A stretch of 58,125 nucleotides of DNA from an uncultured virus (IMG/VR IMGVR_UViG_3300023214_000431) (lineage: Duplodnaviria; Heunggongvirae; Uroviricota; Caudoviricetes). Location: the IMG/VR virus record IMGVR_UViG_3300023214_000431; one strand, 5' to 3'. Both the position numbers and the translations under genes were made by a program. Shown here in pieces: positions 13,947 to 57,577 of this stretch. How positions within the stretch are numbered: the stretch's first letter is position 1; the number at the start of each line of letters is the position of its first letter. A model generated the notes under the pieces. It did no database searches. It was not told the origin of the DNA and was given only the letters and a program-made list of their open reading frames with translations.

Positions 13947-14069
13947 ATGACAAAGCGTACATTCGAGCAAGACTTCGAGCGAGCCAAGAAGGCTGTCCGT
14001 CAAGGCAAAGGGCGCGGCTTGCGTATCGTTCGCCTCCCTTCTCGTTCAGGCGTACACGAAGACCTGTAG
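13947..14069 (+). CDS. 40 aa leader-only member of the FxxxF-leader family
   Basis: GAGGA RBS; MTKRTFEQDFERAKKAVRQGKGRG closely matches the N-termini of ORFs 28761 and 29234; fills the gap between neighbours. Confidence 0.7.
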   Translation: MTKRTFEQDFERAKKAVRQGKGRGLRIVRLPSRSGVHEDL

Positions 14070-14072
14070 AGC

Positions 14073-14828
14073 ATGGGCATCGTATTCGGCATAGCAGCAG
14101 TTCTCTTGCTCGTAGCACTCTCGGGCAAAAAGAACGAAGCTGCGTCCGACAAGGACGGCAAGCAAAAGGACACCACTCAAGGCGCCCTGCCGTCATTCGT
14201 GCGTCAAATCATTGTCAACCGCAACGCGAGCAAGGACGACCTGGCTCGCGCAGCTCTTGAAGCAAAGAACGCGGGCTACCCGCAGCTTGCGCAAGCACTC
14301 GCCAAGCGCATCACCGAGGGAAAGTCTCTCATCACGTCGCCATGGAAAGATGTCTCCGATGGCGCTTGGACACGCTTCGCTCGTGTCATCAGCAACGGCA
14401 AAAAGCCTGACGACATCAAGACCAAGGGCTTTTATGGGATGTTCGACTTGGGCGTCCGTCGTCTCGTCGACCTTGGTGTCATGCGCGATCCAGTGTGCAG
14501 TACGGCGACCGACCCAAAGACCGGAGCGACGATTCGAATCTGGCGTGGTCAATGGGTGATGCCACAGGAGAAATTCCTCGCCGACCCAAAGCTCCAATAC
14601 GACCTGTTCTGCAAGTCGATGGAACTTTACCGCAACATCATCGCCGAGAAGTACAAGCAGGTTCTCGGTCTCGACATCAACGGTCAGAAGGCAACGTTGT
14701 CAGGACTTTTAGCGCTTGCGCACAGTTGCGGCGCCGAGGGTATGTACAAGTGGCTCACCAACCCTGAGATGCGTGAGCGTTTCACCTGGGTCACCAATGC
14801 TTACAACAGGGCCAACGGCATCTTCTGA
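14073..14828 (+). CDS. Membrane-anchored lysozyme-fold (muramidase/transglycosylase-like) protein
   Basis: N-terminal TM; GFYGMFDLG..L.DLG, FLADPKLQ, TLSGLLALAH..GAEG motifs; no obvious catalytic ES. Confidence 0.55.
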   Translation: MGIVFGIAAVLLLVALSGKKNEAASDKDGKQKDTTQGALPSFVRQIIVNRNASKDDLARAALEAKNAGYPQLAQALAKRITEGKSLITSPWKDVSDGAWTRFARVISNGKKPDDIKTKGFYGMFDLGVRRLVDLGVMRDPVCSTATDPKTGATIRIWRGQWVMPQEKFLADPKLQYDLFCKSMELYRNIIAEKYKQVLGLDINGQKATLSGLLALAHSCGAEGMYKWLTNPEMRERFTWVTNAYNRANGIF

Positions 14829-16249
14829 TGAAGAACAAACCCCACAAAAAGAGGCAGCTCGTCACACGAGCCATGAGCCTCATTGCGCGCAGGCGAGCCA
14901 AGTGGCTTGCCACGCAGCGGGGCGAGTCCGTCTCGAAGCAAGACATCGCAGCGGGCAGGCAGTTCGCACAGGGCTTCATGAAAGCTGTCATTTCAGATCC
15001 GTTCTGGATGGCATCGGTTGCCGACATGGCCCAGGCGCTCACGGCCTTCGTCAAGCTCGCTGAGCCCCAGGGCGCGCCCCCGCCCGCGCACTCTCGCGAT
15101 CCAAAGTGCAAGGTCGACATCGACCCCAAGAAAGTGGAGATCGTGCGAGCAGGCTTGATGGCGCTGGCCAAGCGTCTGGGCAGCAAGAAGGAGGCGCGCA
15201 AAACCTTCATTCGTGAGAAGATTCCGGTGCGTGCGCCGGGCAGCCGCACCTTCATTGTCGGATGGGTAGGCAAAGAAGGCAGCGACAGCGTATGCAAGTT
15301 TTGGAACGCCCCCATCGAGGTAATTCAGCAGCGCGTTGATAAAGCTGTAGAATCGGGGAAAAATACAAAGGGCAACAAGGAGAATGCTGTGAACGGAGCT
15401 GCAATCGAAGCACCACCTCGCAAGAAGGTCTACGAGCCTGGCGACTTCCTGCCAACCGCCGACGACATGATTGGGCTCAGCCACAACGTCTCCATCATGG
15501 GTGGGCACCCACGCGGCAAGCGTCGTGCAATCTCGAAGAAGCGATACGAGGCGATGGTCAATCGTCTTGCCTGTCGTTTGGCAATCCAGAGGCAATGCAA
15601 GCCATCGCCCAAGGAGTTCGCTGCGGCCAAGAAGCGCGTCGACATGAAGCTGCGTCGCAAGGGCATTGCTATCGCGGGCGCCATGCAGCTTGGTGTCTCC
15701 GACATCATGGCTGCGTCTTTCGTTCTCGGTGCTGCCGCATCCGGCTCGCAAGCAGCCAAGCTGGCCATCATGAAGTCAGTCGAAGCCGCCAAGGAGGGCA
15801 GCCTGCGTGCAAAGAAGGACGTGACGGCACTCAAGGAAGCCAAGAAACTTCGCGCCGCTCAAGGCAAAGGCAAGCCCGCACCGAAAGGCAACGCCAAGGG
15901 CAAAAAGCCACTACCCAAGAAGATCGCCGTCGTTGCAAAAAAGGCCGCTGCCAAAGCCGCCATCAACGCAAAGAAAAAAGGCGCAAGCAAGCCGCAAGCT
16001 GTTCAGGCCGCCAAAGCCGCAGCCGCCAAGGTCGTCAAAAAAGCCGCCGTTCAAAAGGCCAAGCGTCTTGGGCCTCCCCACACGTTGCCCCCCAAGCGTG
16101 TTGCCGACGCCCGCAAGGCCATCCGCAGCGCCATGACCAAGAGGCCACCCAAGAGCAAGGCCGAAGCTGTCAAGCGTGCGCGCTTGCTGCGCTCTTTTTA
16201 CGGCAGCCCGTACCCCGCGCACCCCGCATTCAAAATCCACGACATCTGA
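14828..16249 (+). CDS. Lys/Ala/Arg-rich basic protein, putative core protein
   Basis: 473 aa; histone-H1-like AKKAAAKAA composition in the C-third. Confidence 0.75.
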   Translation: MKNKPHKKRQLVTRAMSLIARRRAKWLATQRGESVSKQDIAAGRQFAQGFMKAVISDPFWMASVADMAQALTAFVKLAEPQGAPPPAHSRDPKCKVDIDPKKVEIVRAGLMALAKRLGSKKEARKTFIREKIPVRAPGSRTFIVGWVGKEGSDSVCKFWNAPIEVIQQRVDKAVESGKNTKGNKENAVNGAAIEAPPRKKVYEPGDFLPTADDMIGLSHNVSIMGGHPRGKRRAISKKRYEAMVNRLACRLAIQRQCKPSPKEFAAAKKRVDMKLRRKGIAIAGAMQLGVSDIMAASFVLGAAASGSQAAKLAIMKSVEAAKEGSLRAKKDVTALKEAKKLRAAQGKGKPAPKGNAKGKKPLPKKIAVVAKKAAAKAAINAKKKGASKPQAVQAAKAAAAKVVKKAAVQKAKRLGPPHTLPPKRVADARKAIRSAMTKRPPKSKAEAVKRARLLRSFYGSPYPAHPAFKIHDI

Positions 16250-16270
16250 ACCGACACGAGGACTTTCGTC

Positions 16271-18169
16271 ATGACACCAACACCCAAATGGAACACGGAG
16301 CTGCCTCTTCGCAAACCGCGAAAGGTTCCTCCCACTCGCCGATACGACATCGTGATCGACAAGGCGAAGCCCGTGCGGGTGGCGCTCAAGCCCGTCGTAC
16401 CCAAAAAGAAGCTCATCCCGAAAAAGGAAAGGTACATGTACGAAATCAAAGGCACGCCTTTGCGTGACGATGAAATCTTGGTTGCTGCCTCCGAGATGAT
16501 GCCTGACGAACTCATCGTCACCAGCTCGGGCATTCACCGCGTGGGCGAGCGCATCCCCGGCTTTCCCTCAGGTCATGTGATGACCAAGGCCAAGGCTCGT
16601 CAGATGTTCGAGCGCGGCCAGCTCAAAATCCCGAAAAACCTTGTCAACTCCTTCCCTTCAGATCGCATCCGTTCACGACAAGAGCCATTTGGCAAAAAGC
16701 TCAGCCTCGAAGCAATCGCAGCAGCCAATCCTGCTGCTTACCGTGGCTTGGTAATCCACCCAGAAGCCCATCTTCGTGGCGTCACTGTCGATGTGATGGG
16801 CAGCGTCTGGGTGCAAGACGACATGGGCTTCTTCAAGAAGGTCGGAAAGTTCGTCAAAAAAGGTGCAAAAGGCATCGCCAAAGGAGCCAAAAAAGGTGCA
16901 AAAGGCATCGCCAAAGGAGCCAAAAAAGGCTTCAGAGGAGCAAAACGCGGAGCCCGATCTGCCACCCGCTTCACCAAGAAGGCTGCACGAGGCGCTTACC
17001 GTGGCACGCGCCGGGGCCTGCGCAAAACCTGGAAGTACACCAAGAAGAGCGGCCGTGCTCTCGGACGCTTCGCCAAAAAGCACGCCGCAGGCATCGCTTT
17101 GACCGCAGCTCTCGGCCCCGCAGGTCTTGCGGGTTATGTTGGCTGGAACAACCGCAAGAAGATCTGGGCAGTGACCAAGGCCGTGGGGCGCTTGGCAGGC
17201 AAGGCACTCGTCGAACTCGCTCGTGTCATTTCCTCGGCTGCTGCAACTCCGATCCGACTTGCTTTCCGCCAATTCATTGGCCTCCCTCGTGCCCGAGCAA
17301 TCGCCAAGAGCAAAGGGCGTCAAAGCCCGTCACGCCAAGACAAGAGTGAGGCTGTCAAATGGGGATTCGAGCAAGTCAAAAAGAAGCTCGGCAAACTTGG
17401 CTGGCTGGTCGTGAAAATCCTGAAGTTCACTCGTGGTGTGCCGCTCAGTGGCGACATCGGAAATGATACCTCATTCCATGTGTTCCGGGGACCAGCTCAA
17501 ACTCATTACGTCGGCGCAATCGATCCAGCCACCATTTCAGCCTATGCAACGGCTATAACCGCAGCACTGTCCGCACTCAAAGGCTCACTCAAGTTCTTCT
17601 CGGGCTTGAAGAAAGGTAAGCCCGCGGAAGCCGCTGAAGGCGCTCTACAAGCTGCCGACAGCTACAACCGCATGCAGCAGAGCTACGACCAGGCTCGTGG
17701 TGGTCCGCCGCCACAGCAAGCGCCTGGCTACATGTCACAAAGAGATCCGGGCTACGGCGCCTATGGCAGTGCCCAAGACGCGGGTGACTACCAGTCCTAC
17801 GGCAACGCTCAAGACTACCAGGCTGTCCCTGGTCAAAGCGCCTACCCTGGCTACGCGCCAGTTCCACAACGTCCCGCCTATGGTTACCAAACCCCTGGTA
17901 TGATCAATCCTTTGCATGCAGCATCCGCTGCATACAACGCTGTCCGCAGGCCCGTGCAACAATTCGCACAGCAGTACGTGCAACCCGTTCAGCAATTCGC
18001 GCAGCGCTTTGCCGCACCTGCCCAGCAGTTCTACCAAGCTGCCCAGGCCACACGGCAAGCCATCAACCAGCCCGCGCAGTACAGCTCAACCTACAACACC
18101 AACTACGACACCGCGTTTTCCACCATGGGTCGCGGGCGTGGTCTGCCACCGCTCATCAGCTTCGGCTAA
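16271..18169 (+). CDS. 632 aa multi-segment virion protein (amphipathic Lys/Gly helix, hydrophobic segments, Gln/Tyr/Ala-rich tail)
   Basis: GFFKKVGKFVKKGAKG helix; AGIALTAALGPAGLAGYVG; QY-rich C-terminus. Confidence 0.75.
   Translation: MTPTPKWNTELPLRKPRKVPPTRRYDIVIDKAKPVRVALKPVVPKKKLIPKKERYMYEIKGTPLRDDEILVAASEMMPDELIVTSSGIHRVGERIPGFPSGHVMTKAKARQMFERGQLKIPKNLVNSFPSDRIRSRQEPFGKKLSLEAIAAANPAAYRGLVIHPEAHLRGVTVDVMGSVWVQDDMGFFKKVGKFVKKGAKGIAKGAKKGAKGIAKGAKKGFRGAKRGARSATRFTKKAARGAYRGTRRGLRKTWKYTKKSGRALGRFAKKHAAGIALTAALGPAGLAGYVGWNNRKKIWAVTKAVGRLAGKALVELARVISSAAATPIRLAFRQFIGLPRARAIAKSKGRQSPSRQDKSEAVKWGFEQVKKKLGKLGWLVVKILKFTRGVPLSGDIGNDTSFHVFRGPAQTHYVGAIDPATISAYATAITAALSALKGSLKFFSGLKKGKPAEAAEGALQAADSYNRMQQSYDQARGGPPPQQAPGYMSQRDPGYGAYGSAQDAGDYQSYGNAQDYQAVPGQSAYPGYAPVPQRPAYGYQTPGMINPLHAASAAYNAVRRPVQQFAQQYVQPVQQFAQRFAAPAQQFYQAAQATRQAINQPAQYSSTYNTNYDTAFSTMGRGRGLPPLISFG
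16855..16929 (+). repeat. 33 nt tandem repeat x2.3 (KKGAKGIAKGA)
   Basis: CAAAAAAGGTGCAAAAGGCATCGCCAAAGGAGC perfectly duplicated. Confidence 0.9.
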
Positions 18170-20882: not shown

Positions 20883-20885
20883 ACC

Positions 20886-24907: not shown

Positions 24908-25174
24908 ATGGGCTTGATCTCAATTGGAAATTCACCCGAAGCCAGACGCGAGCTGGAGTACCAGCATCCGCGTATGGCACCGCACGCCGACATGGCACCG
25001 CACGCCGACATGGCACCGCACGCCGACATGACACCGCACGCCGACATGGGCGGTGTCATCGATGTGGGTGGTGACTCACCCGGTTTCTTCTCGTCCTTCG
25101 GCTCCGGGCTCGGCAAGGGAATGGGCGTCGCCATCGGCTTTGGCGCCGCTGTGTGGTTGTTGGCGAGAAAATGA
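24908..25174 (+). CDS. Small membrane protein with MAPHAD repeats
   Basis: GAGG RBS; (M[AT]PHAD)4; C-terminal GMGVAIGFGAAVWLL. Confidence 0.7.
   Translation: MGLISIGNSPEARRELEYQHPRMAPHADMAPHADMAPHADMTPHADMGGVIDVGGDSPGFFSSFGSGLGKGMGVAIGFGAAVWLLARK
24974..25048 (+). repeat. 18 nt tandem repeat x4
   Basis: ATGGCACCGCACGCCGAC x3 plus ATGACACCGCACGCCGAC. Confidence 0.95.
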
Positions 25175-25476: not shown

Positions 25477-25815
25477 ATGAGCTGTCTCGCAGGTCTTAAC
25501 GATTTCCTCACGGCTGACGTTCCCGCCGTCAACGGCGGTGTTGGCGCCGATCTCGATGTCTCATCGCTGGTCGCAAAAAAGACCATCTACCTATCGGGCA
25601 TCTTCAATGGTCGCTACACCATCTTGGGCTCGCACGACGACGTGCGCTTCGTTCCCATCGCAATGTTCGAGGGCGACGCCGCACGTTTCGGAACCTCGGG
25701 CCCACAGACCGTGAAAAAGGAGATCGAGCTGACCATCAAGACCGTCAAGGTCTCTCGTGCAGCCGACCGCACCGTCAACATTTCCATCGCAGGCCAACAG
25801 ACCTGCGCCTGCTAG
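25477..25815 (+). CDS. Stand-alone spike-base beta domain
   Basis: KKTIYLSGIFNGRYTILGSHDD resembles the N-domains of ORFs 33475 and 35817; ends IAGQQTCAC. Confidence 0.7.
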   Translation: MSCLAGLNDFLTADVPAVNGGVGADLDVSSLVAKKTIYLSGIFNGRYTILGSHDDVRFVPIAMFEGDAARFGTSGPQTVKKEIELTIKTVKVSRAADRTVNISIAGQQTCAC

Positions 25816-27643: not shown

Positions 27644-28108
27644 GTGTCACGTTCATCATTCGACAAAGCATTCAAGCGCGCCATGGAAGCCGCTGCCAAA
27701 GACGGCAGCAGCAGCAAACCGGTGTCGAAAAAGGTCAAACGCTCACGCGCATTTCGCGAAGAGCAGGCCAAAGACAAAAGCGCTCGCCGGTTCATCGGGC
27801 AGTGTCAGATCGACTTGAAGTTCAAGCGAATGGCCACCGATCCAAAGGGCGCCGTTCGCCCCTGGTACGTCGCCATCGTGTGCGTGGGCAAGATGCGCCA
27901 CAAGTTCTCGGTCGGCGGTCCTGCGGGGTGGGAAGAGTACAAGACGCCCATGGACGATGGCCTACTCGATGACCTGGCCATCGCAGCAGTTGGTTTTGCG
28001 CTCGACGAAGACGATGACGACGTTCCCGATCACGTCACAGAGACAGTCGAGTTGGCAGTGAAGAAGGCTCGCGAGGGCAGCAGCTACAAAGTGAGGAAAA
28101 CGATATGA
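27644..28108 (+). CDS. FxxxF-leader family protein
   Basis: MSRSSFDKAFKRAMEAA, basic linker, acidic passenger domain. Confidence 0.75.
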   Translation: MSRSSFDKAFKRAMEAAAKDGSSSKPVSKKVKRSRAFREEQAKDKSARRFIGQCQIDLKFKRMATDPKGAVRPWYVAIVCVGKMRHKFSVGGPAGWEEYKTPMDDGLLDDLAIAAVGFALDEDDDDVPDHVTETVELAVKKAREGSSYKVRKTI

Positions 28109-28236
28109 CCAAGAAACTCGACGAACTCTATGTGAAGGCTCTCGCGGCAGCGAAGAAGGAACAGTCACGTTCCAAGGCGGAAAACATCCTCGACACCGCC
28201 ATCCTCCCTGATGGCCGCAAGGTCGATTTTCACTGA
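28105..28236 (+). CDS. 43 aa near leader-only family member
   Basis: GAGGA RBS, ATGA coupling; MTKKLDELYVKALAAAKK resembles the ORF 30717 leader. Confidence 0.65.
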   Translation: MTKKLDELYVKALAAAKKEQSRSKAENILDTAILPDGRKVDFH

Positions 28237-28250
28237 GAGGTTCAAAGCAA

Positions 28251-28757
28251 ATGGGAAAGTCACTTCTGGAAAAAGAGTTCGAGCGCTTGAGCAAAGGCGC
28301 CAAGTCGCAATCTGATTTCGACAAGGCATACCTCAAAGCGCTCGAAGCCACGAAGAAGCCTTACGAGCCGCGCTCGCCCGCAGGCCGCCAATACAAGCGA
28401 CGCCTTGAAAGAATCGGTGACTTTGGTGAACACGAGCAGGACCGTCTTGTTCGCGACTCTGAAGCTGGCATGGAGGAACCCCGTATTCCCAACCTCGACC
28501 GGATGAGCGAAGACAAGCTCATGGATTTCTGGGCGCGTTACCATCGCCCCACCAAAAAAACCATCAACGAACTCTTCCCGGGCTGGCCGCAGCGCGGATT
28601 GCGAAAAACCGTCTCCGCTTTGGCCAACTACGCCAGCAACAAAGCTGCCGAAAAAGCCAGTTGGAGGCGCCAAGATAGAACCGCGACCAACATCTACAAG
28701 AAAACCGCCGCCATGGTCTACGACGACCTCCCCGACTATGCCCGTTTCAAAGGATGA
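28251..28757 (+). CDS. FxxxF-leader family protein (doubled leader)
   Basis: LLEKEFERLSKG followed by DFDKAYLKALEATKK. Confidence 0.8.
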   Translation: MGKSLLEKEFERLSKGAKSQSDFDKAYLKALEATKKPYEPRSPAGRQYKRRLERIGDFGEHEQDRLVRDSEAGMEEPRIPNLDRMSEDKLMDFWARYHRPTKKTINELFPGWPQRGLRKTVSALANYASNKAAEKASWRRQDRTATNIYKKTAAMVYDDLPDYARFKG

Positions 28758-28760
28758 AAG

Positions 28761-29779: not shown

Positions 29780-29809
29780 CCCAGCTTCACATCCAAAAGG
29801 AAACCTCAG

Positions 29810-30247: not shown

Positions 30248-30250
30248 GAC

Positions 30251-30649: not shown

Positions 30650-30652
30650 TTT

Positions 30653-30676: not shown

Positions 30677-30716
30677 CAAGAGTCAATTTTCAGAGTTCCG
30701 AAGGAGTCAAAGAGCC

Positions 30717-42296: not shown

Positions 42297-42363
42297 TGTC
42301 CATGTATACAACCCAAAAACGACTAGACGCAATAGTCGAATTTTGAGTATAACGGACCACCCC

Positions 42364-45036
42364 ATGCCTTCTCTATCCCTCGCCATGATCGTCCGCAACG
42401 TCGCGGACACCATCAAACCAGCTCTGGCCTCTGTTGCAAGCTACGTCGATGAAGTCGTCATCGTCGATACAGGCTCAACCGACTCTACAGAACAAGCCAT
42501 TCGTAGCGTCTGCCCTCAAGCCAAATTCATCAGGTTCTGGCCGCACAAATTCGGGACAAACATCCGGAATGAAGCATTCATCCTCGACAGTCCCGAAAGC
42601 TGGGATGAGGAAATGCCGGGGAAGTTCACCGGCAACTACATGCTCGCTGACTTCGCCGCAGCTCGAAACCTGTCCTTCGAGACTTGTACCAAAGACTTCA
42701 TTCTGTGGATTGACAGCGACGACATCGTGCTGGGCTCTGAGCGCATCCCTGCCATCCTAAAAGAGATGGATCGAGATGCCCTCAACATCGGGCTTCTCAC
42801 TTATGAGTATGAGCATGACGACAAGGGCAACGTTGCTTGCGAACTTCTCCGCGAGCGCTTCATTCGCCGAGGCACCGCGACCTGGAAGCAACCCATTCAT
42901 GAATGCCTGACTCCCATCATCAACCCTCGCGTTTTCACCGAATGCAAAATCGTCCACCAACGAAAGAAGTACAAACTCAAGCCCGAGTTCGACAACCGCA
43001 ATATTAAGGTTCTGTACAGATGGTGGGAGAAGAACAAGAAAAGCCCTGATGTCGACCCGCGAATGCTCTTCTATCTTGCGATGGAAGAGCGTTTCATTTG
43101 GGCCGACCGCGCTGTCGAGCACTTCGAGCTTTACTGCAAGAAGTCCGGCTGGGACCAGGAGCGCGCCGTCGCACGATACCTGTGCGGCGAAATCCTCGAA
43201 GCCATGGGTCGCTACGATGAAGCCTTCATCTCCTACGCCCAGGGCTCCCTCGAAGATCCAGATAACCCCGACAACTTGTTTGGCGCGGCACGCATCTACT
43301 ACCAGCGCAACGACTGGCAAAAATGCGTCGACATGAGCCATATCGGCTTCTTTGTTGCGGAGAAACCCGATGCGCTCAAAAGCGCTCTACACCACAACCC
43401 CCTCGACCGCACTTACAGGCCACACATCTACCTGTCCGTCGCCTACCTCAAGCTCGGCCGGGTAGAGGAAGCCCTTCGTTCCTGCAACGAAGGTCTCAAA
43501 TTCAACCCCGATGAACCACACCTCAAGGGCAACAAGGAAGTTGCTGAAAGACACCTCGCACATCAATCGAAAGCAACACCGACCATGACTGACGGCGCAT
43601 TCAAAATCAGAGAAGACGAGCCCCTCGACACACCATCGAGCCCTGTTCCTTCAAGCATCCTCATCGTCATCTTGATGCAGATGTGGAAAAAGAACATGGA
43701 AGCCGGGCTGTATACGCGAGCGATGCAGCTTCTTTCTTCCGTACCGCCCGAGCTGGAGCTGCACAAGAAGGTCGTCCAGGCCAAAGACATCACCACCAAA
43801 AAACTCGAAGGTGTGCCCGAAGCTGACAGCAAAGAAGCCAAGCCAGCCATCGCCCCCGCGAAAGAAACCGCCGTCTTCCAGCCGGGCAAGAAGCTCCGCA
43901 TCGTCATTTGGACAGGCCCTGCGTGGGAGCCCTGGTCACCAAAGTCCCTCGACACCACCGGCCTTGGTGGATCGGAAACCGCAGCCATTTGCATGGCCAA
44001 AGAGCTGCGCGCACTCGGCCATGAAATCGTCGCTGTCCTCTCACAGTGCGATGGCATGGAAGGCGAATACGACGGCATCCCCTACGTTCACTTCCAAAAA
44101 GCCGTCAACAACCCGCACCTATTCGCTTGTGATGTTCTCGTCGTATCCCGCCAGCCTTCAGCGCTCAGCACCGGCATCCCCCACAAGACATCCTACGTCT
44201 GGGTTCACGACATCCACCTCGGCGACCCGTCCCAGGGCGACCTTTCCAAACATCTTCTCAAGGCCGATCACTACTTCTGCCTTTCTCAGTGGCACAAAGA
44301 GTTCTTCCTCAAGACCTACCCTTTCATCCACGCCGATAGCGTGATCGTGACGAAGAACGGACTTGACCTCAAATACTTCGAGAACAAGCCCATCAAAGAA
44401 GGCAACCGCCTCATCTACTCATCATCCCCCGACCGGGGGTTAGCTCGTTTGCTCGAACTCTTTCCACGCATCCGTGAGCGTGTGCCCGACGCACAGCTCG
44501 ACGTGTACTACGGCTTTGTCACCTGGAAGTCCATGGCCAAACAGGCCAACGACCATGGCCAGCTCGCTCAAATCGAAAAATTCGAGCAGATGCTTGAAGC
44601 CCAAAAGAACGCAGGCGTCACCTACCATGGCCGCGTCAGCAAAACCGAACTCGCGCAAGCCTTCCTCCGCAGCAAGGTCTGGGCTTACCCGACATGGTTC
44701 ACCGAGACCTATTGCATCACCGCCATCGAAGCGGCTGCCGCTGGCTGCGTGCCCGTAACGACTGCGCTCGCCGCATTACCGGAAACCGTCTCACACGGTT
44801 TCGTCCTTCAACGTGCCAAACCCGATAGCGAAGAGTACGCAAAGACCTTCGTTGATCGAGTCGTTAAACTTCTCACCAACGAAGAAGAACGAAGCAAGTT
44901 CGCTCAAGGCGGCAGACAGTACGCTTTCGCCCATCACGGCTGGGACAAGGTTGCAAGCAAATGGGCTGAGCACTTCCAAGCCTCCCTCAAACAAAAATCC
45001 GAACTGCCCATCTCTCTTCCCCGCTTCGGAGTCTGA
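42364..45036 (+). CDS. GT2-TPR-GT4 fusion glycosyltransferase
   Basis: LSLAMIVRN, DTGSTD, ILWIDSDD, TPRs; then GGSETA, YSSSPDRGL, ETYCITAIEA (Ex7E). Confidence 0.92.
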   Translation: MPSLSLAMIVRNVADTIKPALASVASYVDEVVIVDTGSTDSTEQAIRSVCPQAKFIRFWPHKFGTNIRNEAFILDSPESWDEEMPGKFTGNYMLADFAAARNLSFETCTKDFILWIDSDDIVLGSERIPAILKEMDRDALNIGLLTYEYEHDDKGNVACELLRERFIRRGTATWKQPIHECLTPIINPRVFTECKIVHQRKKYKLKPEFDNRNIKVLYRWWEKNKKSPDVDPRMLFYLAMEERFIWADRAVEHFELYCKKSGWDQERAVARYLCGEILEAMGRYDEAFISYAQGSLEDPDNPDNLFGAARIYYQRNDWQKCVDMSHIGFFVAEKPDALKSALHHNPLDRTYRPHIYLSVAYLKLGRVEEALRSCNEGLKFNPDEPHLKGNKEVAERHLAHQSKATPTMTDGAFKIREDEPLDTPSSPVPSSILIVILMQMWKKNMEAGLYTRAMQLLSSVPPELELHKKVVQAKDITTKKLEGVPEADSKEAKPAIAPAKETAVFQPGKKLRIVIWTGPAWEPWSPKSLDTTGLGGSETAAICMAKELRALGHEIVAVLSQCDGMEGEYDGIPYVHFQKAVNNPHLFACDVLVVSRQPSALSTGIPHKTSYVWVHDIHLGDPSQGDLSKHLLKADHYFCLSQWHKEFFLKTYPFIHADSVIVTKNGLDLKYFENKPIKEGNRLIYSSSPDRGLARLLELFPRIRERVPDAQLDVYYGFVTWKSMAKQANDHGQLAQIEKFEQMLEAQKNAGVTYHGRVSKTELAQAFLRSKVWAYPTWFTETYCITAIEAAAAGCVPVTTALAALPETVSHGFVLQRAKPDSEEYAKTFVDRVVKLLTNEEERSKFAQGGRQYAFAHHGWDKVASKWAEHFQASLKQKSELPISLPRFGV

Positions 45037-45038
45037 CC

Positions 45039-47465
45039 ATGAACCCTTTGAAAGTTGCCCTCATCTGCGGAAAATTCTCCACTGGTCTACACGGGTCCAT
45101 CGACGCTGAAAGACTCTTCGAAGCCCGCGCCCTAACCGGCTCCGAATCTTCCTTCTTCAACCTCGCTCGCGGTCTATCCGAACTTGGCCACACAGTCCAT
45201 GTCTTCTGCGATGTCGTCAAACCCCTCGAACATTGCGAGCGGCTTGCAGGCGCTGCCGTCCGTCACATCGACAACGACCCAGGCGACAAGTACGACGCTT
45301 ATGTCTCGCTGAACGAACCCGATCAATTCCGCCGCCTACCAAACGACGTGCGCGGCTTGCGCATCGTCCAGCAGCAGCTCAACGACTTCCCCTACTGCAT
45401 GGAAGGCTTCGACAACTACGTCGACATCTACGCCTTCCTCGCCCCCGCCCACCGCGACTACGTTCTTTCGGTCACTCCCCAGATCGCGAAGAAAAAAGCG
45501 TGGTGGATTCCCAACTCCATCAACCCCGAAATCTCTGCCAAGTTCGCAGGGCTCCCCAAGGTCAAAAACTCGATGGCCTGGTGTTCATCCCCCGACCGGG
45601 GTCTGCACCGCCTGTTGGAGATGTGGCCTTACATCCGCAAGGAGATCCCAGACGCCACTCTCAAGATCTTCTATCGCTTCCAGCCGTGGTACGACTCGTT
45701 TGCGAACGACCATTCGCCGCTTGGTGCTCGTGCGCGCTACATCGGCGAGTGCCTCGACCGGTTGGGGCGCAATGGCGAAAATGGCGTGACCCTGGTTGGC
45801 GCTGTGCCCAACGTCAAGCTCGCTGAAGAACTCGCCCGCACCGAGATTCTGCCCTACACCTGCGACTGCGTGCGCTTCACCGAGGGCTTCTCCGTGAGCA
45901 TCATGGATGCCTGTGCAGCGGGTGCCGTCCCCGTCATCACCGACACCGACGCCATCGGCGACATCTACCGTGGCGTGGCTGTGGTGCTGCCCGAGAACCC
46001 TGGCGATCACATCGAGGCATGGGTCAAGGAGCTTGCGAAAATCAGTCGTGATGATGAGTACCGCCGCGTACTCGTCAATCGAGGCCGGAAGTTCGCCGAA
46101 CGCTTCGAGCGCATGCGAGTCGCCAAGCTCTGGGAAATCATGATGGCCTCGAACCAGGGCCACAAAGAAAATCCAGTGTTTACGGAAATGCCGCAAAGCG
46201 TCTCCGATTATGCGGCCCCTGTCGGACAGCCCGTTTCCGGCGACCAGTCGAAATTCGACCCGATTGTACGCACGGAGGCGCCACAGGAGCCCGAACGCAT
46301 CCCAGCGCCCGAGAACACGGCACCACCTTCCACGCCTCCTGCGGCTTCTCAGGCACGCTCAGCACCCGTCGCTCACGCGTCGCAGAAAAGCGCCCGGATC
46401 TCCCGGGGCCCCCGCGTCTCCATCGTGATGCCCGCCTACCGGCCTGGCGGCATGGACATCACCTTCGAGGGGCTCTCGAAACAAACCGAAAAGGACTTCG
46501 AGCTGATCGTGGTCGACAGCCGCTACGAGCGCCGTCAACGCAAGATGCAAGAACTGGCCGACCACTACGGCATCCCGCTCATCCATGCACCTGAGCACCG
46601 CCGCAACGGCAAGTGGATTGTCTTCTGTGCTGCCATGAACACCGGCTTTGCTCTGGCCCGAGGGGAGTTCGTCATCATGCTGCTCGACTTCACCTGGGTT
46701 CCACCCAACTGGATTGAAAAGCACTTGCAGGCCCATGAAGGCAGCTTCCGCCGCTACATCACCGCCGACAACCTGCACGTCGATCTGCCCGAGGTCTTAT
46801 TCAAGCGTCCATACACGCCGCCCGACATGGAAGAGGCCAATCGGAGCAAGACAACCCTCGATGAACTCTTCCACGGCGGCATCGTCGATGAAGTCGCCTT
46901 CTTTAAAGACGGCCTCTTCCAATCCGAATGGGTTCCCAACCTACCCATAGGCCCCCAACAATGGCAGTCCGGCCTCACCGAACAATTCCAAAAAGGCGCC
47001 AAGCCTGATTGGGCGTGGCCCCACTTGTCAAACGATTCCATTCGTCGCGACCTCATCCTGGAACTTAACGGCTTCGATGAACGATACGACTTCTCCCGCA
47101 GCATCGCCGATCAGAACTTTGCAATGCGCGCGCAAATGGCTGGAATCGAAATCGGGTTCACCGACAACCGTGTCACGATGCCTAACCCACGTTTCCTTGC
47201 CCGCACCCTTCCATACGGTGCCGACAAGGAGCGCGTCGAAGGACGTTGGAACACACAAGACGGCATCGACTACAACAACATCGTTGCCGAAACCGGCGCG
47301 ACCTTCGCCGACAACCCATTCATCCTCCACAATCTCACAGTTGAACTCGAACCGTGGCGCAACCACGACGCCACTCGTGTTCCTCGCGACATCCCCGACA
47401 TCGCATATTGGCGTCGACCCATGACGCCCGAGACGCCACCCATGACCGAAAACATTGGGAAGTAA
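45039..47465 (+). CDS. GT4-linker-GT2 fusion glycosyltransferase
   Basis: TGSES, SSPDRGL, EGFSVSIMDA; then VSIVMPAY, QT.KDFELIVVD, LNGFDERY. Confidence 0.9.
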   Translation: MNPLKVALICGKFSTGLHGSIDAERLFEARALTGSESSFFNLARGLSELGHTVHVFCDVVKPLEHCERLAGAAVRHIDNDPGDKYDAYVSLNEPDQFRRLPNDVRGLRIVQQQLNDFPYCMEGFDNYVDIYAFLAPAHRDYVLSVTPQIAKKKAWWIPNSINPEISAKFAGLPKVKNSMAWCSSPDRGLHRLLEMWPYIRKEIPDATLKIFYRFQPWYDSFANDHSPLGARARYIGECLDRLGRNGENGVTLVGAVPNVKLAEELARTEILPYTCDCVRFTEGFSVSIMDACAAGAVPVITDTDAIGDIYRGVAVVLPENPGDHIEAWVKELAKISRDDEYRRVLVNRGRKFAERFERMRVAKLWEIMMASNQGHKENPVFTEMPQSVSDYAAPVGQPVSGDQSKFDPIVRTEAPQEPERIPAPENTAPPSTPPAASQARSAPVAHASQKSARISRGPRVSIVMPAYRPGGMDITFEGLSKQTEKDFELIVVDSRYERRQRKMQELADHYGIPLIHAPEHRRNGKWIVFCAAMNTGFALARGEFVIMLLDFTWVPPNWIEKHLQAHEGSFRRYITADNLHVDLPEVLFKRPYTPPDMEEANRSKTTLDELFHGGIVDEVAFFKDGLFQSEWVPNLPIGPQQWQSGLTEQFQKGAKPDWAWPHLSNDSIRRDLILELNGFDERYDFSRSIADQNFAMRAQMAGIEIGFTDNRVTMPNPRFLARTLPYGADKERVEGRWNTQDGIDYNNIVAETGATFADNPFILHNLTVELEPWRNHDATRVPRDIPDIAYWRRPMTPETPPMTENIGK

Positions 47466-47467
47466 CC

Positions 47468-48724
47468 ATGCACCTCATTCACCGCCAGACCTGCCGCGTT
47501 TGCGGCTCTTGTGCTCTCACCAAGGTCATCGACCTGGGCGAGCAATACTTGCAGAACGTCTTTCCCCGCGAGGATGAAGAGCTGCCCTGCGTCCGCAAGC
47601 TACCGACAGAGTTGGTTCTGTGCGATCCAACTCAAGATGAAAAAGCCTGTGGTCTACTGCAAACGCGACACACGGTCCCTCCCCAGATCTTGTACTCATC
47701 CTACTGGTACAAATCTGGCGTCAACCAAACGATGAAAGACCATCTGTGCGATGTAGTTCAAGACTGCATCAAGCACGCCAAGCGTATTAATCTTGGCCAA
47801 GACATCACCGTCCTCGACATCGGCTGCAACGACGGCACGCTGCTCGGCTTCTGGCCCGATCCAATTCACAAGTTCGGGGTCGACCCATCAGATGTCGCCC
47901 GTGAAGCCTTCGCCGAACGTAAGGACCGTACAACTTTCATCAGCGATTTCTTCCCCAGCGATTCACTTCCCGGCGACACCAAGTTCGATTTCATTACCGC
48001 CATCGCGATGTTCTATGACCTCGAAAATCCAATACAATTCCTTCAAAACATCGCCGAGAAACTCAAAAGGGGCGGCATCACCTGCATCGAAGTCTCGCAC
48101 ATGCCGACCATGCTCGCTCGGACCTCCTACGACACCATCTGCCACGAGCATCTCGAATACTACTCGCTCGCTGTTCTCGAACAGATGTTTACAAAGTGTG
48201 GCCTCCACATATTCGATGCCTCTCTCAACGAAATCAACGGTGGCAGCATCCGCGTCTTCGCATCACCTGAGAAAAAAGACGAGAGCGAAAACCTTCGTCA
48301 GATCAGAATGCACGAGTTCGAGATGAACCTCGATTCGCCCGAGACCTATCGCAAGTTCCAGCACATCTCCGAGGTCAGAGCCCACGACCTCCTATCCCTC
48401 CTTGCTTCAGCCGCAGCCAAGGGTCAAACCGTTCACGCATATGGCGCCTCCACCAAGGGCAACACCATCTTGCAGTGGTGCAAGATCGACAGAAGATTCG
48501 TGCAATATGCCGCTGACAGGAACCCTGCAAAGCACGGCTGCAAAACCCCCGGCACCAACATCCCCATCATCAGCGAAGAAGAGTCGCGCGGCATGAAGCC
48601 TAACTTCTACCTCGTGCTGCCCTGGTCATTCGCCGACGAGTTCAAGGAGCGAGAAAAAGAAATGCTCGCTCAAGGAACCCGGTTCATCTTCCCACTACCA
48701 ACCATCCAGGTCGTTGGGGGATGA
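47468..48724 (+). CDS. NDP-sugar C-methyltransferase (Zn-binding class I SAM MTase)
   Basis: CRVCGS, DIGCNDG, ICHEHLEYYS, NGGS, YGASTKGNT, LPW.F. Confidence 0.92.
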   Translation: MHLIHRQTCRVCGSCALTKVIDLGEQYLQNVFPREDEELPCVRKLPTELVLCDPTQDEKACGLLQTRHTVPPQILYSSYWYKSGVNQTMKDHLCDVVQDCIKHAKRINLGQDITVLDIGCNDGTLLGFWPDPIHKFGVDPSDVAREAFAERKDRTTFISDFFPSDSLPGDTKFDFITAIAMFYDLENPIQFLQNIAEKLKRGGITCIEVSHMPTMLARTSYDTICHEHLEYYSLAVLEQMFTKCGLHIFDASLNEINGGSIRVFASPEKKDESENLRQIRMHEFEMNLDSPETYRKFQHISEVRAHDLLSLLASAAAKGQTVHAYGASTKGNTILQWCKIDRRFVQYAADRNPAKHGCKTPGTNIPIISEEESRGMKPNFYLVLPWSFADEFKEREKEMLAQGTRFIFPLPTIQVVGG

Positions 48725-49320
48725 AAAGCTACGCCCAAGACGGCGAGGACATCCTTCTCGACCATCTCATCGGCGACCAAAAGCGCGGCGTCTACGTCGA
48801 CATAGGAGCCGCCGACTACTACAGCAACACGCAGTTCTTTCGAGAGCGCGGCTGGCGTGGAGTCAACGTCGAGCCGCACCCCGAAAGCTACGAGCGAATC
48901 ATCAAGAACCGCCCTGACGACTTCAACATGCAAGCTGGTGTCGCCGAAGAAGAAGGCTTGCGCACCTTCTACGCTGTCAAAGAACACCGCACTCGCTCGA
49001 CCTTCAACAAAGCCGTCGCCGACAACTGCGGCTTTCCCTACGAAACCATCACCATCGCCGTTATGCCCTTGCGAGACATACTCGCAGCCGCAGGCGTTGG
49101 CGCCATCGACCTGATGAGCATCGACACCGAGGGTCACGACTTCCAGGTTCTCCGAAGCAACAACTGGAAACGCTGGGTTCCCAAATTCATCATCATCGAG
49201 ATCAAGCCACCAAACGGCCTCGACAAAGAGCCCTGGGAGGGATTTCTCGAAAGCAAAGGCTACCGCTTGGCAGCCGTCAGCAAGAACCACATCAACGCCA
49301 TCTACCAGCACAAACCATGA
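48721..49320 (+). CDS. FkbM family methyltransferase
   Basis: YAQDGED, YVDIGA, GWRGVNVEP, MSIDTEG. Confidence 0.92.
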   Translation: MKSYAQDGEDILLDHLIGDQKRGVYVDIGAADYYSNTQFFRERGWRGVNVEPHPESYERIIKNRPDDFNMQAGVAEEEGLRTFYAVKEHRTRSTFNKAVADNCGFPYETITIAVMPLRDILAAAGVGAIDLMSIDTEGHDFQVLRSNNWKRWVPKFIIIEIKPPNGLDKEPWEGFLESKGYRLAAVSKNHINAIYQHKP

Positions 49321-50228
49321 GAATCATCGTCACAGGCGTCAACGGCTTTCTCGGAAGCCACATGGCTCAATACCTCTCCGACCAGAGCCACCAAGTCATC
49401 GGCTGCGCTCGAAGGCTACGTGAAAAGAAACCCGCTGACCTCCATGACTACGCCGACTGCGATTTGACCGACCGGTTTCAAACCGAGGCTTTCTTCCATT
49501 TCTACAAGCCTGTCGATTGCCTCTATCACTTCGCAGCCGAAGTTGGCAGATCTGACACCATCACAAAAAGCTCGTGCGACCAAAACATCCTCATCAACAC
49601 CGCTACTTTCGCAGCCGCTCATGCCACAAGCATCCCGAAAATTCTTTTCTCATCTTCGGTCAACGTCTACGACCAAACCAGTGAATACGGACGCGAGCGC
49701 CTCGTCAGTGAAAAACTGGCGCGAGGACTCTGCCCCGAGGCCCAGGTTCACATCGTCAGACTCGCAAACGTAGTCGGTCGCGGGTGTCCGTGGAAAGGCA
49801 CCAAAGCCCGCGTCGTCGCTTCTCTCTGTCGCCAAGCACTCGTCAACAACGGCTACATCACCATCAAAGGTAACGGCAAACAGCGCCGTGCTTTCATCCA
49901 CATCACCGATGCCGTCCGCGCCATGAGCATCATCACCCAACACGCAAACCCCAAGGACATTCTCGATCTCGCCATTCCAGAAATCTTCACCGTCAACGAC
50001 ATCGTTTCATGCATCGAAACCATCCACGGGCCGCTCGAAAGGCGTTACAAGCCCAACTCGATGCCCGAACCCACTCTCGATCTGGACGGGCGGGTTCATT
50101 TGTTTCGACGAGCTACCGACAAGATCACATGGTATCCCGGAATGCCACTAACCGCTGCAATCCAGGACACCTATGAATGGGTCCGAGATTCTATCATCGA
50201 AACTGGACAAACCCGTGCCTCCCGGTGA
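49317..50228 (+). CDS. NAD-dependent epimerase/dehydratase (extended SDR)
   Basis: TGVNGFLG, HFAA, SSS..VY, YGRER, G.G.Q.RAFIHI.D. Confidence 0.88.
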   Translation: MRIIVTGVNGFLGSHMAQYLSDQSHQVIGCARRLREKKPADLHDYADCDLTDRFQTEAFFHFYKPVDCLYHFAAEVGRSDTITKSSCDQNILINTATFAAAHATSIPKILFSSSVNVYDQTSEYGRERLVSEKLARGLCPEAQVHIVRLANVVGRGCPWKGTKARVVASLCRQALVNNGYITIKGNGKQRRAFIHITDAVRAMSIITQHANPKDILDLAIPEIFTVNDIVSCIETIHGPLERRYKPNSMPEPTLDLDGRVHLFRRATDKITWYPGMPLTAAIQDTYEWVRDSIIETGQTRASR

Positions 50229-50796: not shown

Positions 50797-52473
50797 ATGG
50801 CGAAGAAGCGCCCGTCTCGAAAAACCCCTAAAAAGGGGGCTAAACGAGGTGCCCGCAAGGCATCAACGGACAAGCCACAGCCAAAATACAAGACCGCAAA
50901 GAAGCCTCACAAGTCTGCGAAATCAAAAAAGCCTCGCAAGTCTGCGAAACCAAAGAAAGGCGCCTCGAAAAGCCCCAGGCGCACTACGAAAGCCTCCAAG
51001 GGCATCAAACGCAGCCGGGGTGTGCGAGCAACAGCCGAGCAAAAACGCGCCCGCAGAGCCCTGCTGAGCTATGTTAACCGCCTTGGCAAGCGCAAGGCTG
51101 CCCGCCGCCTCGATGCGACCGTCTCCGAAATCGAGCGCTGGCTGCGCACATGGAACATCCCCGCGCCTGTGCGGCCCGAGGTCATCGGCCTCGATACATC
51201 CGGGGGTGGCTTCACCTACCTGCGCGGCACGAGCTTGCAGGATGCCGTCAAGCGCATGGGCTACACAGGCGTCTCACGCCTGACGGGTCTCAGCGGCAAA
51301 CGCATAAAAGAGATCTTGTCGAAGCGGCCCAAGGCCCGCATCAAGGTCAGCCGCAAGCGCATCCAGGAGCTTGGCGAGAAGAAGGGCTGGGACTACCTGG
51401 CCGAAAAGCTCAAGGCAACACCCTATCTCATCAAGAGTTCCTCGGCCTTTCCGAAGACCGACGCGACAAAGAGATTGCAAGGATTCACCAACCAATACGG
51501 TGAAGGCGAAGTCGCCTACTTCCTTGGCATTCAACCCCACACTCTCAAGCGCTGGCTCGACAGCAACGTTCCTCGCTCATGGGAAGCCGACCTCAATCGC
51601 TACATCGGCCGTCGCCGTGACGAGGGCATGACGGTCGATGAAATCCAAGCCCGTCTTGCCGATCCACGCAGCATCAAATCCTATGTCACCGAAGCACTGA
51701 AGAAGGCCGCCGCCTGGAACAAGAAAGTACGCGGCAAGTTCCGCATCTCAAAAAAGACTGCTGAACGTTGGGGGCGCCTTCGAGAGTTCGACGACCAATT
51801 CAAGCGTCTCAAAGAAGCCTGGCAAGAAGCTCAAAAAGCCGAAAAGAAAAAGCGACCACCAAAAGGCGCACCCCCTCCCGTACCAGCCCCACCGCCAACA
51901 CCCCCGCCACTTTTTCCCACCAAGCCGCCACCGCTTGCCGAGACCCCGCAAGTCCCTGTACCCCCCATCGAGCAAGCCGTACACGAAGCGATGAAAGACT
52001 TCTACGGAAAACGTGCTTCAGCCATCGCCGACAGCAAAAACGCTGGCTACCTACCCCTCGACGACTTCGGCTTCTTCTCACCCTACAAAGGCACCTGGCG
52101 CGAAGGCTACCGCTACTACGGCGAGGTAGGGCAATTCGTAGTCCTCATCGACATGACGAAGCTGGGCAACGAAATCATCAAGCGTGCCAGGCAGATGTGG
52201 GCGAAGATTCATGGGCGTGGCGAGCGCATGAGCATCAAGTACACTTTCTCTGCACAGGGTTCAGGCAACCCTTTTTATCCAGGCGCCTTCGAGCCCGACA
52301 AGAACGAGTTCAACTTCTTCACGCTCAAACCTGACGACATCACCGAGCCCCACACCATCGACCGTAACGTGCGCACAGCCATGGAACAGATCTGGGAAAA
52401 CGCTCAGGAGAACATGCTCTTCTTCGAGCATTACGAAATCGTCAAGAGCATCAACATCCGGATGGACCTGTGA
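50797..52473 (+). CDS. Basic multi-HTH protein
   Basis: Lys-rich N-tail; HTH-like AARRLDATVSEIERW, VSRLTGLSGKRI, VAYFLGIQPHTLKRW; Pro linker; unknown C-domain. Confidence 0.7.
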   Translation: MAKKRPSRKTPKKGAKRGARKASTDKPQPKYKTAKKPHKSAKSKKPRKSAKPKKGASKSPRRTTKASKGIKRSRGVRATAEQKRARRALLSYVNRLGKRKAARRLDATVSEIERWLRTWNIPAPVRPEVIGLDTSGGGFTYLRGTSLQDAVKRMGYTGVSRLTGLSGKRIKEILSKRPKARIKVSRKRIQELGEKKGWDYLAEKLKATPYLIKSSSAFPKTDATKRLQGFTNQYGEGEVAYFLGIQPHTLKRWLDSNVPRSWEADLNRYIGRRRDEGMTVDEIQARLADPRSIKSYVTEALKKAAAWNKKVRGKFRISKKTAERWGRLREFDDQFKRLKEAWQEAQKAEKKKRPPKGAPPPVPAPPPTPPPLFPTKPPPLAETPQVPVPPIEQAVHEAMKDFYGKRASAIADSKNAGYLPLDDFGFFSPYKGTWREGYRYYGEVGQFVVLIDMTKLGNEIIKRARQMWAKIHGRGERMSIKYTFSAQGSGNPFYPGAFEPDKNEFNFFTLKPDDITEPHTIDRNVRTAMEQIWENAQENMLFFEHYEIVKSINIRMDL

Positions 52474-56494: not shown

Positions 56495-56516
56495 AAACCC
56501 CAACAAGGAAACCACC

Positions 56517-57047
56517 ATGAAACTCTCCGATCTCGACAAGGCCGCCACCGAAAGACTGGCGGCCTATGTCGACGACCTGGGCCTGGGCCTCTCCGTCGTC
56601 GCAAACATCTTCGCCCTGACCATCGCCGATACCACCGAGGCCCTTGTCCTCGGTCGCGAGCGCCGCTCGCGTAGAAGCGATAGCACACCCCGCGAGCAAC
56701 CCAAGCGCGTGCTCCGCTATGCCGTCATGGACCGCGAAAACTCGCCCGTCCAATTCGGCACAACCCCCCACGACCGATACGCCGTGTACTACCAGGGCGG
56801 TCGCCTCTGCACCGACCCTGAGAGCAACGCATGGGGCGGCATCGCCCTCGCCTTCACGCCCTCAAAGATGCACGCAGATCTCATCGCTGCGGCTCTCAAC
56901 GCCTACGCTGAAATCCACGGAGCAAACCGTGGCGACCACACACCCGAAGACATGCGTCGTCTCATCTACGATCTGAATAGTACCGACCTGAACACATGCC
57001 GTTCGGAAATGTTGGCTGTTGGTGTTGTCAAGCCCAAAAAGGGGTAG
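56517..57047 (+). CDS. Hypothetical protein
   Basis: AAGGA RBS; MKLSDLDK start. Confidence 0.7.
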   Translation: MKLSDLDKAATERLAAYVDDLGLGLSVVANIFALTIADTTEALVLGRERRSRRSDSTPREQPKRVLRYAVMDRENSPVQFGTTPHDRYAVYYQGGRLCTDPESNAWGGIALAFTPSKMHADLIAAALNAYAEIHGANRGDHTPEDMRRLIYDLNSTDLNTCRSEMLAVGVVKPKKG

Positions 57048-57056
57048 ACTCAGGGC

Positions 57057-57577
57057 ATGGGCGAATCGTTCGACAAGAGCTTCGAGAAGGCCATCAAGGC
57101 CACCAAACCAAAGCCCCGCAACCCAACGATCAAACGAACTGGCAAAACCGTCAAAGTACGTATGGGCGCTGGACAAAAAGTTCATGCGGCCGATGTACTA
57201 CGAGACGTGGACAAATCAGGACGACCCACCGAAGGGGTCTGGGTGCGATGTAGCAAAAGCGGCCCTGTTATGTGGCCGCACCATCAACCCTCAGTCGCTT
57301 ACCAGACGATGCCCCTGTGACATGCGTGAAATGCGATCCGCAAGCACAGTTTGAAATTCGAGGACCCTACCACGAGTTACCGCTTTACGAATGGCACGGG
57401 ATGCTCAGCAATCTCGCCCGCTCGCATGGAGGAAAGCTCTACAAATCTTCCAGCCGTGCTCGTCGAGTGAAAATACGTGTACCCTTTGGCGCAGGCGAAG
57501 CCATGAACCGTGACGCTGAGCCCTTCCGGAGCGCAAAGCGCGAAGTCATTGTAAAAGAGACTGAACAACAACCCTAG
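57057..57577 (+). pseudogene. FxxxF-leader family gene with Zn finger, apparently frameshifted near 57255-57272
   Basis: MGESFDKSFEKAIKATK leader; KVHAA...VRC in one frame and DAPVTCVKC in another. Confidence 0.55.

Follow-up and report, generated by a model that had tools for sequence, protein, structure and literature searches.

Ten small genes with a common N-terminal leader

The DNA analyzed here is a 58,125-bp stretch (≈58% GC) of the uncultured virus record IMGVR_UViG_3300023214_000431 (Caudoviricetes), referred to below as the window. The window makes up about half of a 120,125-bp contig, its long open reading frames (ORFs) lie almost all on the + strand, and the family scans that we report cover these 58 kb. 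Ten small ORFs of the window begin with versions of one short peptide, which we term the leader: a core with the consensus [FL][DE]xx[FY]xxA[ILM]xA, predicted to be helical, and a linker rich in lysine and arginine. In most of these ORFs a passenger region follows (Table 1).

An earlier annotation made from the letters alone, which we call the sequence-only reading, had listed ten N-terminal strings, and all ten are found at the ORF starts where it had placed them. The consensus that it gave is matched strictly in 8 of the 10 ORFs; the other two are near-misses only, with a lysine at position 9 in ORF 13947 and a glutamine at position 11 in ORF 30717. Motif position 1 falls on residues 3-7 in nine ORFs and on residue 23 in ORF 28251, where a degenerate motif-like copy at residues 6-16 precedes the strict motif and is seen by the leader hidden Markov model (HMM) as a second, weak domain covering HMM positions 2-8.

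The same reading had described the leader genes as scattered along the DNA, a description that does not hold: 8 of the 10 are clustered in one 5.8-kb island (27644-33478). The genes of this island follow one another closely, head to tail, and share their strand with the endolysin gene, a holin-like ORF, and fibre-like genes, and no promoter-like sites were found between the leader genes. The connection to the endolysin gene is immediate, in that the start of ORF 33128 overlaps the endolysin stop.

Table 1. Leader genes of the window and further features identified by family matches. Cores are the nucleotide positions of the leader core.
Feature	Position	Strand	Length (residues)	Leader core	Remarks
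ORF 13947	13947-14069	+	40	13962-13997	Leader only; Lys at position 9
ORF 14073	14073-14828	+	251		N-terminal hydrophobic helix, transmembrane-anchored; no family match (Pfam, PHROGs, NCBIfam, PDB sequence search)
ORF 27644	27644-28108	+	154	27659-27694	Leader gene; GTG start; orphan passenger
ORF 28105	28105-28236	+	43	28117-28152	Leader only; start overlaps stop of 27644; P0098 among supporting profile matches
ORF 28251	28251-28757	+	168	28317-28352	Leader gene; strict motif at residue 23
ORF 28761	28761-29237	+	158	28776-28811	Leader gene; passenger (residues ~30-158) is phrog_1915
ORF 29234	29234-29779	+	181	29243-29278	Leader gene; top HMM score; orphan passenger
ORF 30251	30251-30649	+	132	30263-30298	Leader gene; passenger with leaderless homologue in locus L012
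ORF 30717	30717-31152	+		30735-30770 (frame 0)	Leader gene broken by +1 frame change; passenger in +1 frame ends at 31152
ORF 33128	33128-33478	+	116	33134-33169	Leader gene; TTG start after strong Shine-Dalgarno
ORF 57057	57057-57320	+	87	57069-57104	Leader gene; adjoins UvrD-type helicase gene
GT2/GT1 glycosyltransferases with TPR repeats					Family match
SLT domain	ORF 22537				Family match
Amidase_2 endolysin	32463-33131	+			Family match
Collagen-repeat protein	ORF 35817				Matches tail-fibre PHROGs
Methyltransferases and epimerase					Family matches
UvrD-type helicase	ORF 55022				Family match
phrog_1915 and phrog_1818					Family matches

Statistical support for the leader motif

The strict pattern occurs eight times in the six-frame translation of the window, each time on the + strand and no more than 35 residues after a stop. 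By comparison, triplet shuffling (200 rounds) gave 0.07 strict matches on average and never more than 1, and shuffling the residues of the 65 annotated proteins (1000 times) left a mean of 0.004 strict matches within the first 45 residues. Alignment of the leaders against shuffled sequences had been named beforehand as a test of the motif, and the motif lies far above chance in it. Because the pattern was derived from the same data, this test is post hoc; the excess over chance is overwhelming nonetheless. As for the near-misses, ORF 13947 aligns by BLASTP to ORFs 28761 (E = 1.5e-5) and 29234 (E = 8.9e-5), and a strict-match leader precedes a passenger orthologous to that of ORF 30717 in P0003, a protein from outside the window that is described below.

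An HMM built from the ten leaders scores its own members at 21.5-30.5 bits, with the next-best match in the window at 9.9 bits, and it assigns 18.0-22.4 bits to four external leaders that were outside the training set. When each leader was left out in turn, six of the ten scored above the best non-leader (13.1-27.7 versus ~10 bits), and four fell at or below noise: ORFs 13947 (9.2 bits), 33128 (9.9 bits), 30251 (4.9 bits), and 30717 (4.0 bits). ORFs 30251 and 33128, weak in this test, still match the pattern drawn from the other six leaders. A copy of the leader inside a scaffold-like protein of the window was also considered and is ruled out, all other HMM matches being at or below 9.9 bits.

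Conserved helix face and basic linker

Across 14 leaders, the conserved positions are 1 (Phe/Leu), 2 (Asp/Glu), 5 (Phe/Tyr), 7 (Lys/Arg), 8 (Ala), 9 (Ile/Leu/Met), and 11 (Ala), and the variable ones are 3, 4, 6, and 10. Ala8 is present in all 14 leaders and Ala11 in 13. From this spacing, the conserved positions are predicted to form one face of a helix, and small alanine residues on its hydrophobic side would fit a tight packing of the helix against a protein. The codons behind these residues vary: Ala8 is encoded by GCC, GCG, GCT, and GCA, Ala11 by four codons, and Phe1 by two. That these residues are kept while their codons differ shows selection at the level of the peptide, as opposed to the DNA. 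The three most alike leader copies share 62-78% DNA identity.

The hydrophobic moment per residue is 0.62-0.73 in 7 of the 10 cores and 0.28-0.42 in the remaining three. In an AlphaFold2 model of the ORF 28761 product, built on a 65-sequence alignment, residues 3-18 are predicted as a helix (predicted local distance difference test score, pLDDT, ~70), residues 19-31 lack regular structure (pLDDT ~62), and residues 32-158 form a confidently predicted domain (pLDDT 90-98).

The 25 residues that follow the core contain 27.8% lysine plus arginine, compared with 13.3% in the proteome. When other proteins were sampled at random over the corresponding N-proximal positions, none of 5000 draws reached 27.8%, which bears out the basic linker described in the sequence-only reading. 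The linkers of ORFs 28761 and 30717 (frame 0) are not net basic, and neither length nor sequence of the linker is conserved between paralogues. A protease site of the adenovirus type after the helix was also sought by eye and was set aside as inconsistent.

Reading frames of individual leader genes

Three of the leader genes call for comment on their frames. ORF 13947 stops at a TAG codon, and one codon further on ORF 14073 begins in the same frame; ORF 14073 is thus a possible former passenger of the 13947 leader, cut off by the TAG stop. A general recoding of TAG was considered and rejected: the 65 + strand ORFs end in TGA (33), TAA (20), and TAG (12), and the ORFs are long under translation table 11.

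In ORF 30717, the GC content at third codon positions (GC3) falls from 0.66 to 0.41 in frame 0 past a run of six adenines (30800-30805), compared with 0.67 in the +1 frame. The frame-0 tail, which had been taken for the passenger, is therefore out-of-frame junk, and the real passenger lies in the +1 frame. The change of frame, at or near the adenine run, would stem from the gain or loss of a single base, from slippage, or from an error in the assembly.

ORF 57057 had been said to reach position 57577. The ORF ends at 57320, and 57272-57577 is a separate ORF that overlaps it in another frame, an overlap by which ORF 57057 may be a second frameshifted gene.

Passengers and the separability of the leader

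The passengers are mutually unrelated, with a best BLASTP E value of 0.11 among 12 sequences. The claim that all ten leaders are followed by such passengers is to be narrowed, since ORFs 13947 (40 residues) and 28105 (43 residues) have none.

Two passengers have informative homologues. That of ORF 28761 is a widespread phage domain of unknown function, with homologues in 453 phage records; among the 20 matches listed, most start at query residues 27-41. Of 91 homologues of this domain in a large protein collection, 90 lack the leader by HMM or pattern, and P0007 is the only carrier. The passenger of ORF 30251 has a homologue that is a bare 89-residue ORF, its start aligned to residue 47, in a phage whose 179-kb genome is complete and carries direct terminal repeats. 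No leader was found in the whole 179-kb record (best score 11 bits), and the 20-kb locus around the homologue (L012) held no other matches to window proteins. These results uphold the claim that the leader is independent of the passenger folds.

Only three external proteins carry the leader. P0007 is an orthologue of ORF 28761 in which 116 of 127 passenger residues are identical, compared with 13 of 29 in the leader region, where the hydrophobic face is kept. Its leader is closer to that of ORF 13947 than to that of ORF 28761, a sign that leader copies have been exchanged. P0101 is an orthologue of ORF 30251 (63% identity) in which the leader and linker are conserved no less than the passenger, and the leader and linker of ORF 30251 (residues 1-40) are conserved in both P0101 and P0003. 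P0003 begins with a leader and linker of the 30251 type; a second leader and an additional middle region come next, and its C-terminal passenger is orthologous to the +1 frame of ORF 30717. P0003 has lost one passenger and is left with two leaders in tandem, and the leader-only ORFs 13947 and 28105 fit leaders that were left behind. Taken together, the evidence supports a leader that is a separable, portable module and not part of the passenger folds.

Structure and profile searches gave little on the passengers themselves. PDB sequence searches with ORFs 28761, 29234, and 14073 returned nothing meaningful. The AlphaFold2 model of the ORF 28761 product had no Foldseek match in the PDB at E ≤ 0.001, a best VIA-align Z of 4.6, and matches to uncharacterised phage proteins only in BFVD. 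ESM Atlas held no usable match for ORF 29234, and tblastn against phage records found nothing for ORFs 29234 and 27644 and one weak partial match for the 30823 frame. A weak Pfam match of the 30823-frame passenger to P11_C (E = 0.022) is absent with the orthologue P0003 and was dropped.

Distribution of the leader

To gauge how widely the leader occurs, we compared its profile exhaustively with 1.84 billion protein representatives and obtained 9 matches at E ≤ 0.001, which comprise this lineage and three internal-repeat proteins. Examination of the sequences led us to reject P0099 and P0100 as relatives, both being internal-repeat proteins, and P0102 was judged spurious from its 8 matched stretches alone. 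P0100 is an unrelated, secreted-looking protein of 770 residues with ~12 internal repeats that have a leader-like core, and its similarity appears to be that of a convergent amphipathic helix.

Scans of IMG/VR with ORFs 16271, 29234, and 2087 found no relatives, and the single IMG/VR locus that matches a degenerate DNA pattern of the leader is an internal, C-terminal chance match on a 47% GC contig. The same pattern finds 10 loci in the JGI metagenomes; one (L011) is a fragment of the same phage, 100% identical to window positions 28397-30654, and the other nine lie inside unrelated proteins and were discarded. No relative came out of two scans of the GTDB genome contigs (alignments A4 and A5), and a word-index search with P0003 returned P0003 itself only. 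By these searches, the leader is confined to one rare phage lineage. No published leader of this sequence came to light in the literature searches, which were aimed at capsid targeting sequences and gave only T4, P1, SPN3US, and engineering papers.

Other genes of the window

Family matches are sparse among the 73 ORFs scanned with Pfam, PHROGs, and NCBIfam (Table 1). The product of ORF 2087 is beta-rich, and its nearest ESM Atlas clusters consist of hypothetical proteins, mostly from Uroviricota (tailed phages). The few family matches and the placement of ORF 2087 put the phage in a very poorly known lineage. They lend no support to the tailless virion that had been proposed for it, and nor does ORF 35817, whose matches to tail-fibre PHROGs run through its collagen repeats. 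Relaxed PHROG and Pfam scans for structural candidates gave nothing usable.

Several further features were noted in passing. Directly after ORF 2087, positions 2775-3774 hold three tandem paralogues of 108-109 residues with 49-57% identity. A glycosylation island (4338-5612 and 42343-50228) includes two large GT2+TPR+GT1 proteins, C- and FkbM-type methyltransferases, and an NAD epimerase, and the paralogue of the large glycosyltransferases at 4338 shares 40% identity with them over 410 residues. The fibre-like proteins encoded at 25477-25815, 33475-35685, and 35817-36986 have a short N-terminal region in common (38% identity over 47 residues, E = 1.8e-4, between 25477 and 33475; similar by eye in 35817). 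Between ORFs 24115 and 25153, an 18-nt unit is repeated in tandem (24956-25063; ~5 copies with identities of up to 100%). The ORFs in 40680-42340 give odd, low-complexity-looking translations on either strand and have no family matches, and this region may be non-coding or mis-framed.

Some ORFs share other compositional features. At least eight on the + strand (starts at 6376, 6980, 9764, 14073, 18181, 23551, 23867, and 29810) open directly on a hydrophobic helix of 15-20 residues, after which come Gly/Ser and Lys/Arg. Paralogues are found among them (18181 with 6980 and 9764; 23551 with 23867), and this second N-terminal theme could represent membrane anchors or signal peptides without an n-region. 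An extremely basic composition recurs in a 65-residue, protamine-like ORF (32106-32303) that is built on 15-nt repeats (32120-32206), in the K/A-rich C-terminus of ORF 14828-16249, in the lysine-rich N-terminus of ORF 50797-52473, and in ORF 16271-18169, which contains an exact 33-nt tandem duplication at 16855-16920.

Directly upstream of the 13947 leader, ORF 13033-13935 encodes 300 residues with a Cys..His..Asp pattern, seen by eye, like that of transglutaminase-type cysteine proteases. It has no family match, a PDB sequence search with it returned no meaningful match, and its AlphaFold2 single-sequence model is unusable (mean pLDDT 32), so the idea of a cysteine protease depends on the by-eye pattern.

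Discussion

A narrow conserved helix face, made of aromatic and invariant small residues, and a floppy basic tether, both placed on unrelated domains, are best understood as a tag by which the proteins dock on a single shared receptor. Judged by sequence, such a portable docking tag is the most likely identity of the leader. Short N-terminal address peptides of this general kind are known in phages. In phage T4, the internal proteins are a diverse set whose members have only the capsid targeting sequence (CTS) in common, by which they are brought to the scaffolding core (PMC3012670, PMC9026906, PMC7411985), and these sources describe the CTS as sufficient to carry foreign proteins into the head. 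For phage P1, DarB is reported to carry within its first 30 residues a signal that takes a reporter to the capsid (PMC9024508). For the SPN3US/phiKZ group, PMC7411985 proposes that N-terminal regions target proteins into the prohead, and describes propeptides that are long (111 residues in gp47) and are removed by the prohead protease.

The resemblance to the T4 system lies in a short N-terminal peptide on unrelated, fast-changing, small proteins of one phage (in T4, IPI, IPII, IPIII, and Alt), with cargo that is often basic. Here, one N-terminal peptide (8 strict and 2 near matches) likewise stands on unrelated passengers. The systems differ in that gp21 removes the T4 peptide, whereas no common protease site follows the helix in 13 sequences here. 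T4-type head genes (portal, protease, scaffold, or major capsid protein) were not detected by Pfam, PHROGs, or NCBIfam in the 58-kb window, which is about half of the contig. The tag is longer in the present case, a helix of ~16 residues with a polybasic tether, and no sequence relation to the T4 CTS was shown. P1 DarB is alike in having an N-terminal signal of ~30 residues for the capsid in a phage outside the T4-like group, but PMC9024508 describes that signal for one large protein, as opposed to a motif on many unrelated proteins. The SPN3US/phiKZ propeptides are distinguished by their length and cleavage, no such site or protease having been found in the window.

Outside the viruses, encapsulin cargo-loading peptides are short peptides on diverse cargo that dock inside a shell of the HK97 fold. 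They are usually C-terminal and belong to bacterial compartments and not to viruses. Their sequences differ from the leader, and no encapsulin or capsid gene was identified in the window.

How such a tag might operate can be sketched from these elements. The module consists of an amphipathic helix of 12-16 residues, with aromatic residues at positions 1 and 5, the invariant Ala8, Ile/Leu/Met at 9, and Ala11 on one face, and a flexible K/R-rich tether of 10-30 residues. It has been joined to accessory domains that are unrelated, within a single gene island beside lysis and fibre genes, and recombination exchanges it, duplicates it or leaves it behind. The helix would dock all tagged proteins on one shared receptor. 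That receptor would most likely sit on the assembling virion, so that the tagged proteins would travel with the DNA into the next cell. The action would resemble that of the T4 CTS, except that the tag seemingly stays on, with the cargo perhaps kept on the DNA by the basic tether. More tentatively still, the leader may constitute an independent, cleavage-free addressing system of a phage lineage whose genes are almost all unfamiliar, in which any accessory domain that gains a 12-residue helix and a polybasic tether joins one receptor and is carried in the particle, perhaps on the DNA, to the next host, with tags that recombine and a cargo set that turns over fast; we regard this full version as doubtful.

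Virion loading of the T4 CTS kind is our best guess for the destination of the docking tag, with a probability of about 0.4; the co-injection and possible anti-defence roles that the sequence-only reading attached to it are conjectural. Several points weigh against it. Pfam, PHROGs, and NCBIfam scans of the window, relaxed thresholds included, detected no family of capsid, portal, terminase, scaffold, or prohead protease proteins, and none of the 13 sequences examined shares an [LI]xE or [SAG]xE site at a common position between helix and passenger; a lack of both a common protease site and a protease or head gene in the window counts against simple membership in the T4 CTS class. Leader gene 57057 sits in the replication region and not in the late region, any products of the leader-only ORFs 13947 and 28105 would be competitors of the cargo, only 6 of the 10 leaders are recovered in the leave-one-out test, and a helix with a polybasic stretch is also typical of modules that target membranes or bind DNA. 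A conserved docking face and modularity would serve equally well if the helix docked its proteins on a common hub outside the virion, such as a host chaperone, a protease adaptor, a polymerase, or a compartment or complex built by the phage, so that the accessory domains act at one site in the infected cell. No result constrains the destination in this respect, the leader-only peptides 13947 and 28105 could then be competitors or inhibitors, and the position of ORF 57057 next to a helicase gene would suit such a hub. We nevertheless consider it unlikely, given that no candidate hub was identified and that most leader genes lie among late-type genes (endolysin and fibre-like); nor did a published case of ten unrelated phage proteins with one host-binding helix turn up, in searches that were aimed at capsid targeting instead.

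A serious rival, if on balance also an improbable one, is that the leader is a peripheral membrane anchor, its amphipathic helix lying on the surface of the inner membrane or a viral membrane and its polybasic tether on acidic lipids. The high moment of most cores, the basic linker, and the helix predicted at residues 3-18 agree with this proposal. Membrane association may be a recurrent theme here, since by eye eight or more further ORFs of the window start with a hydrophobic helix, some of them paralogues; the 13947 leader directly precedes the hydrophobic helix of ORF 14073, and the island contains the putative holin-like ORF 31170 as well as the endolysin. The hydrophobic face, however, is narrow and centered on the invariant Ala8 and Ala11 and not on bulky residues, three cores have a low moment, and a strict Asp/Glu at position 2 and Lys/Arg at position 7 would be unexpected for lipid binding. 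Less likely than an anchor is a non-specific tether to DNA or the nucleoid that needs no protein receptor. The basic linker would suit it, and other extremely basic tracts occur in ORF 32106, the C-terminus of ORF 14828, ORF 16271, and the N-terminus of ORF 50797, but a DNA tether leaves the conserved face of aromatic residues and alanines unexplained and sits poorly with linkers that vary among paralogues and in two cases are not net basic, and we give it little credence. Least likely is that the leader has no function as a peptide and is a shared 5' cassette (ribosome site, start, and first codons), spread by recombination, that lets captured genes be expressed. Leaders have been swapped between genes, as between P0007 and its orthologue 28761, tandem and orphan leaders occur, and the ribosome-site regions of ORFs 13947 and 28105 are nearly identical; against these stand the several synonymous codons at conserved residues, the restriction of conservation to one helix face, a DNA identity that even in the three most alike copies is too low for homologous recombination within the genome, and upstream regions that differ among most copies. 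A leader of the ribosomally synthesized and post-translationally modified peptide (RiPP) or double-glycine bacteriocin type was rejected: the passengers are proteins of 90-160 residues with at least one confident globular fold, and the window shows no family match to a C39 peptidase, an ABC exporter, or a RiPP enzyme.

If the docking tag does serve virion loading, the T4 strategy of one short address peptide on interchangeable injected proteins would have arisen separately in an unrelated phage, and without a protease site. The injected proteins of an uncultured phage could then be listed directly from sequence, and the leader would offer a compact tag of ~30 residues for packaging foreign proteins. 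If the destination is instead a membrane or a host hub, the leader would open the shared site of action of its passengers to testing and would still be a rare case of one linear signal on many unrelated phage accessory proteins.

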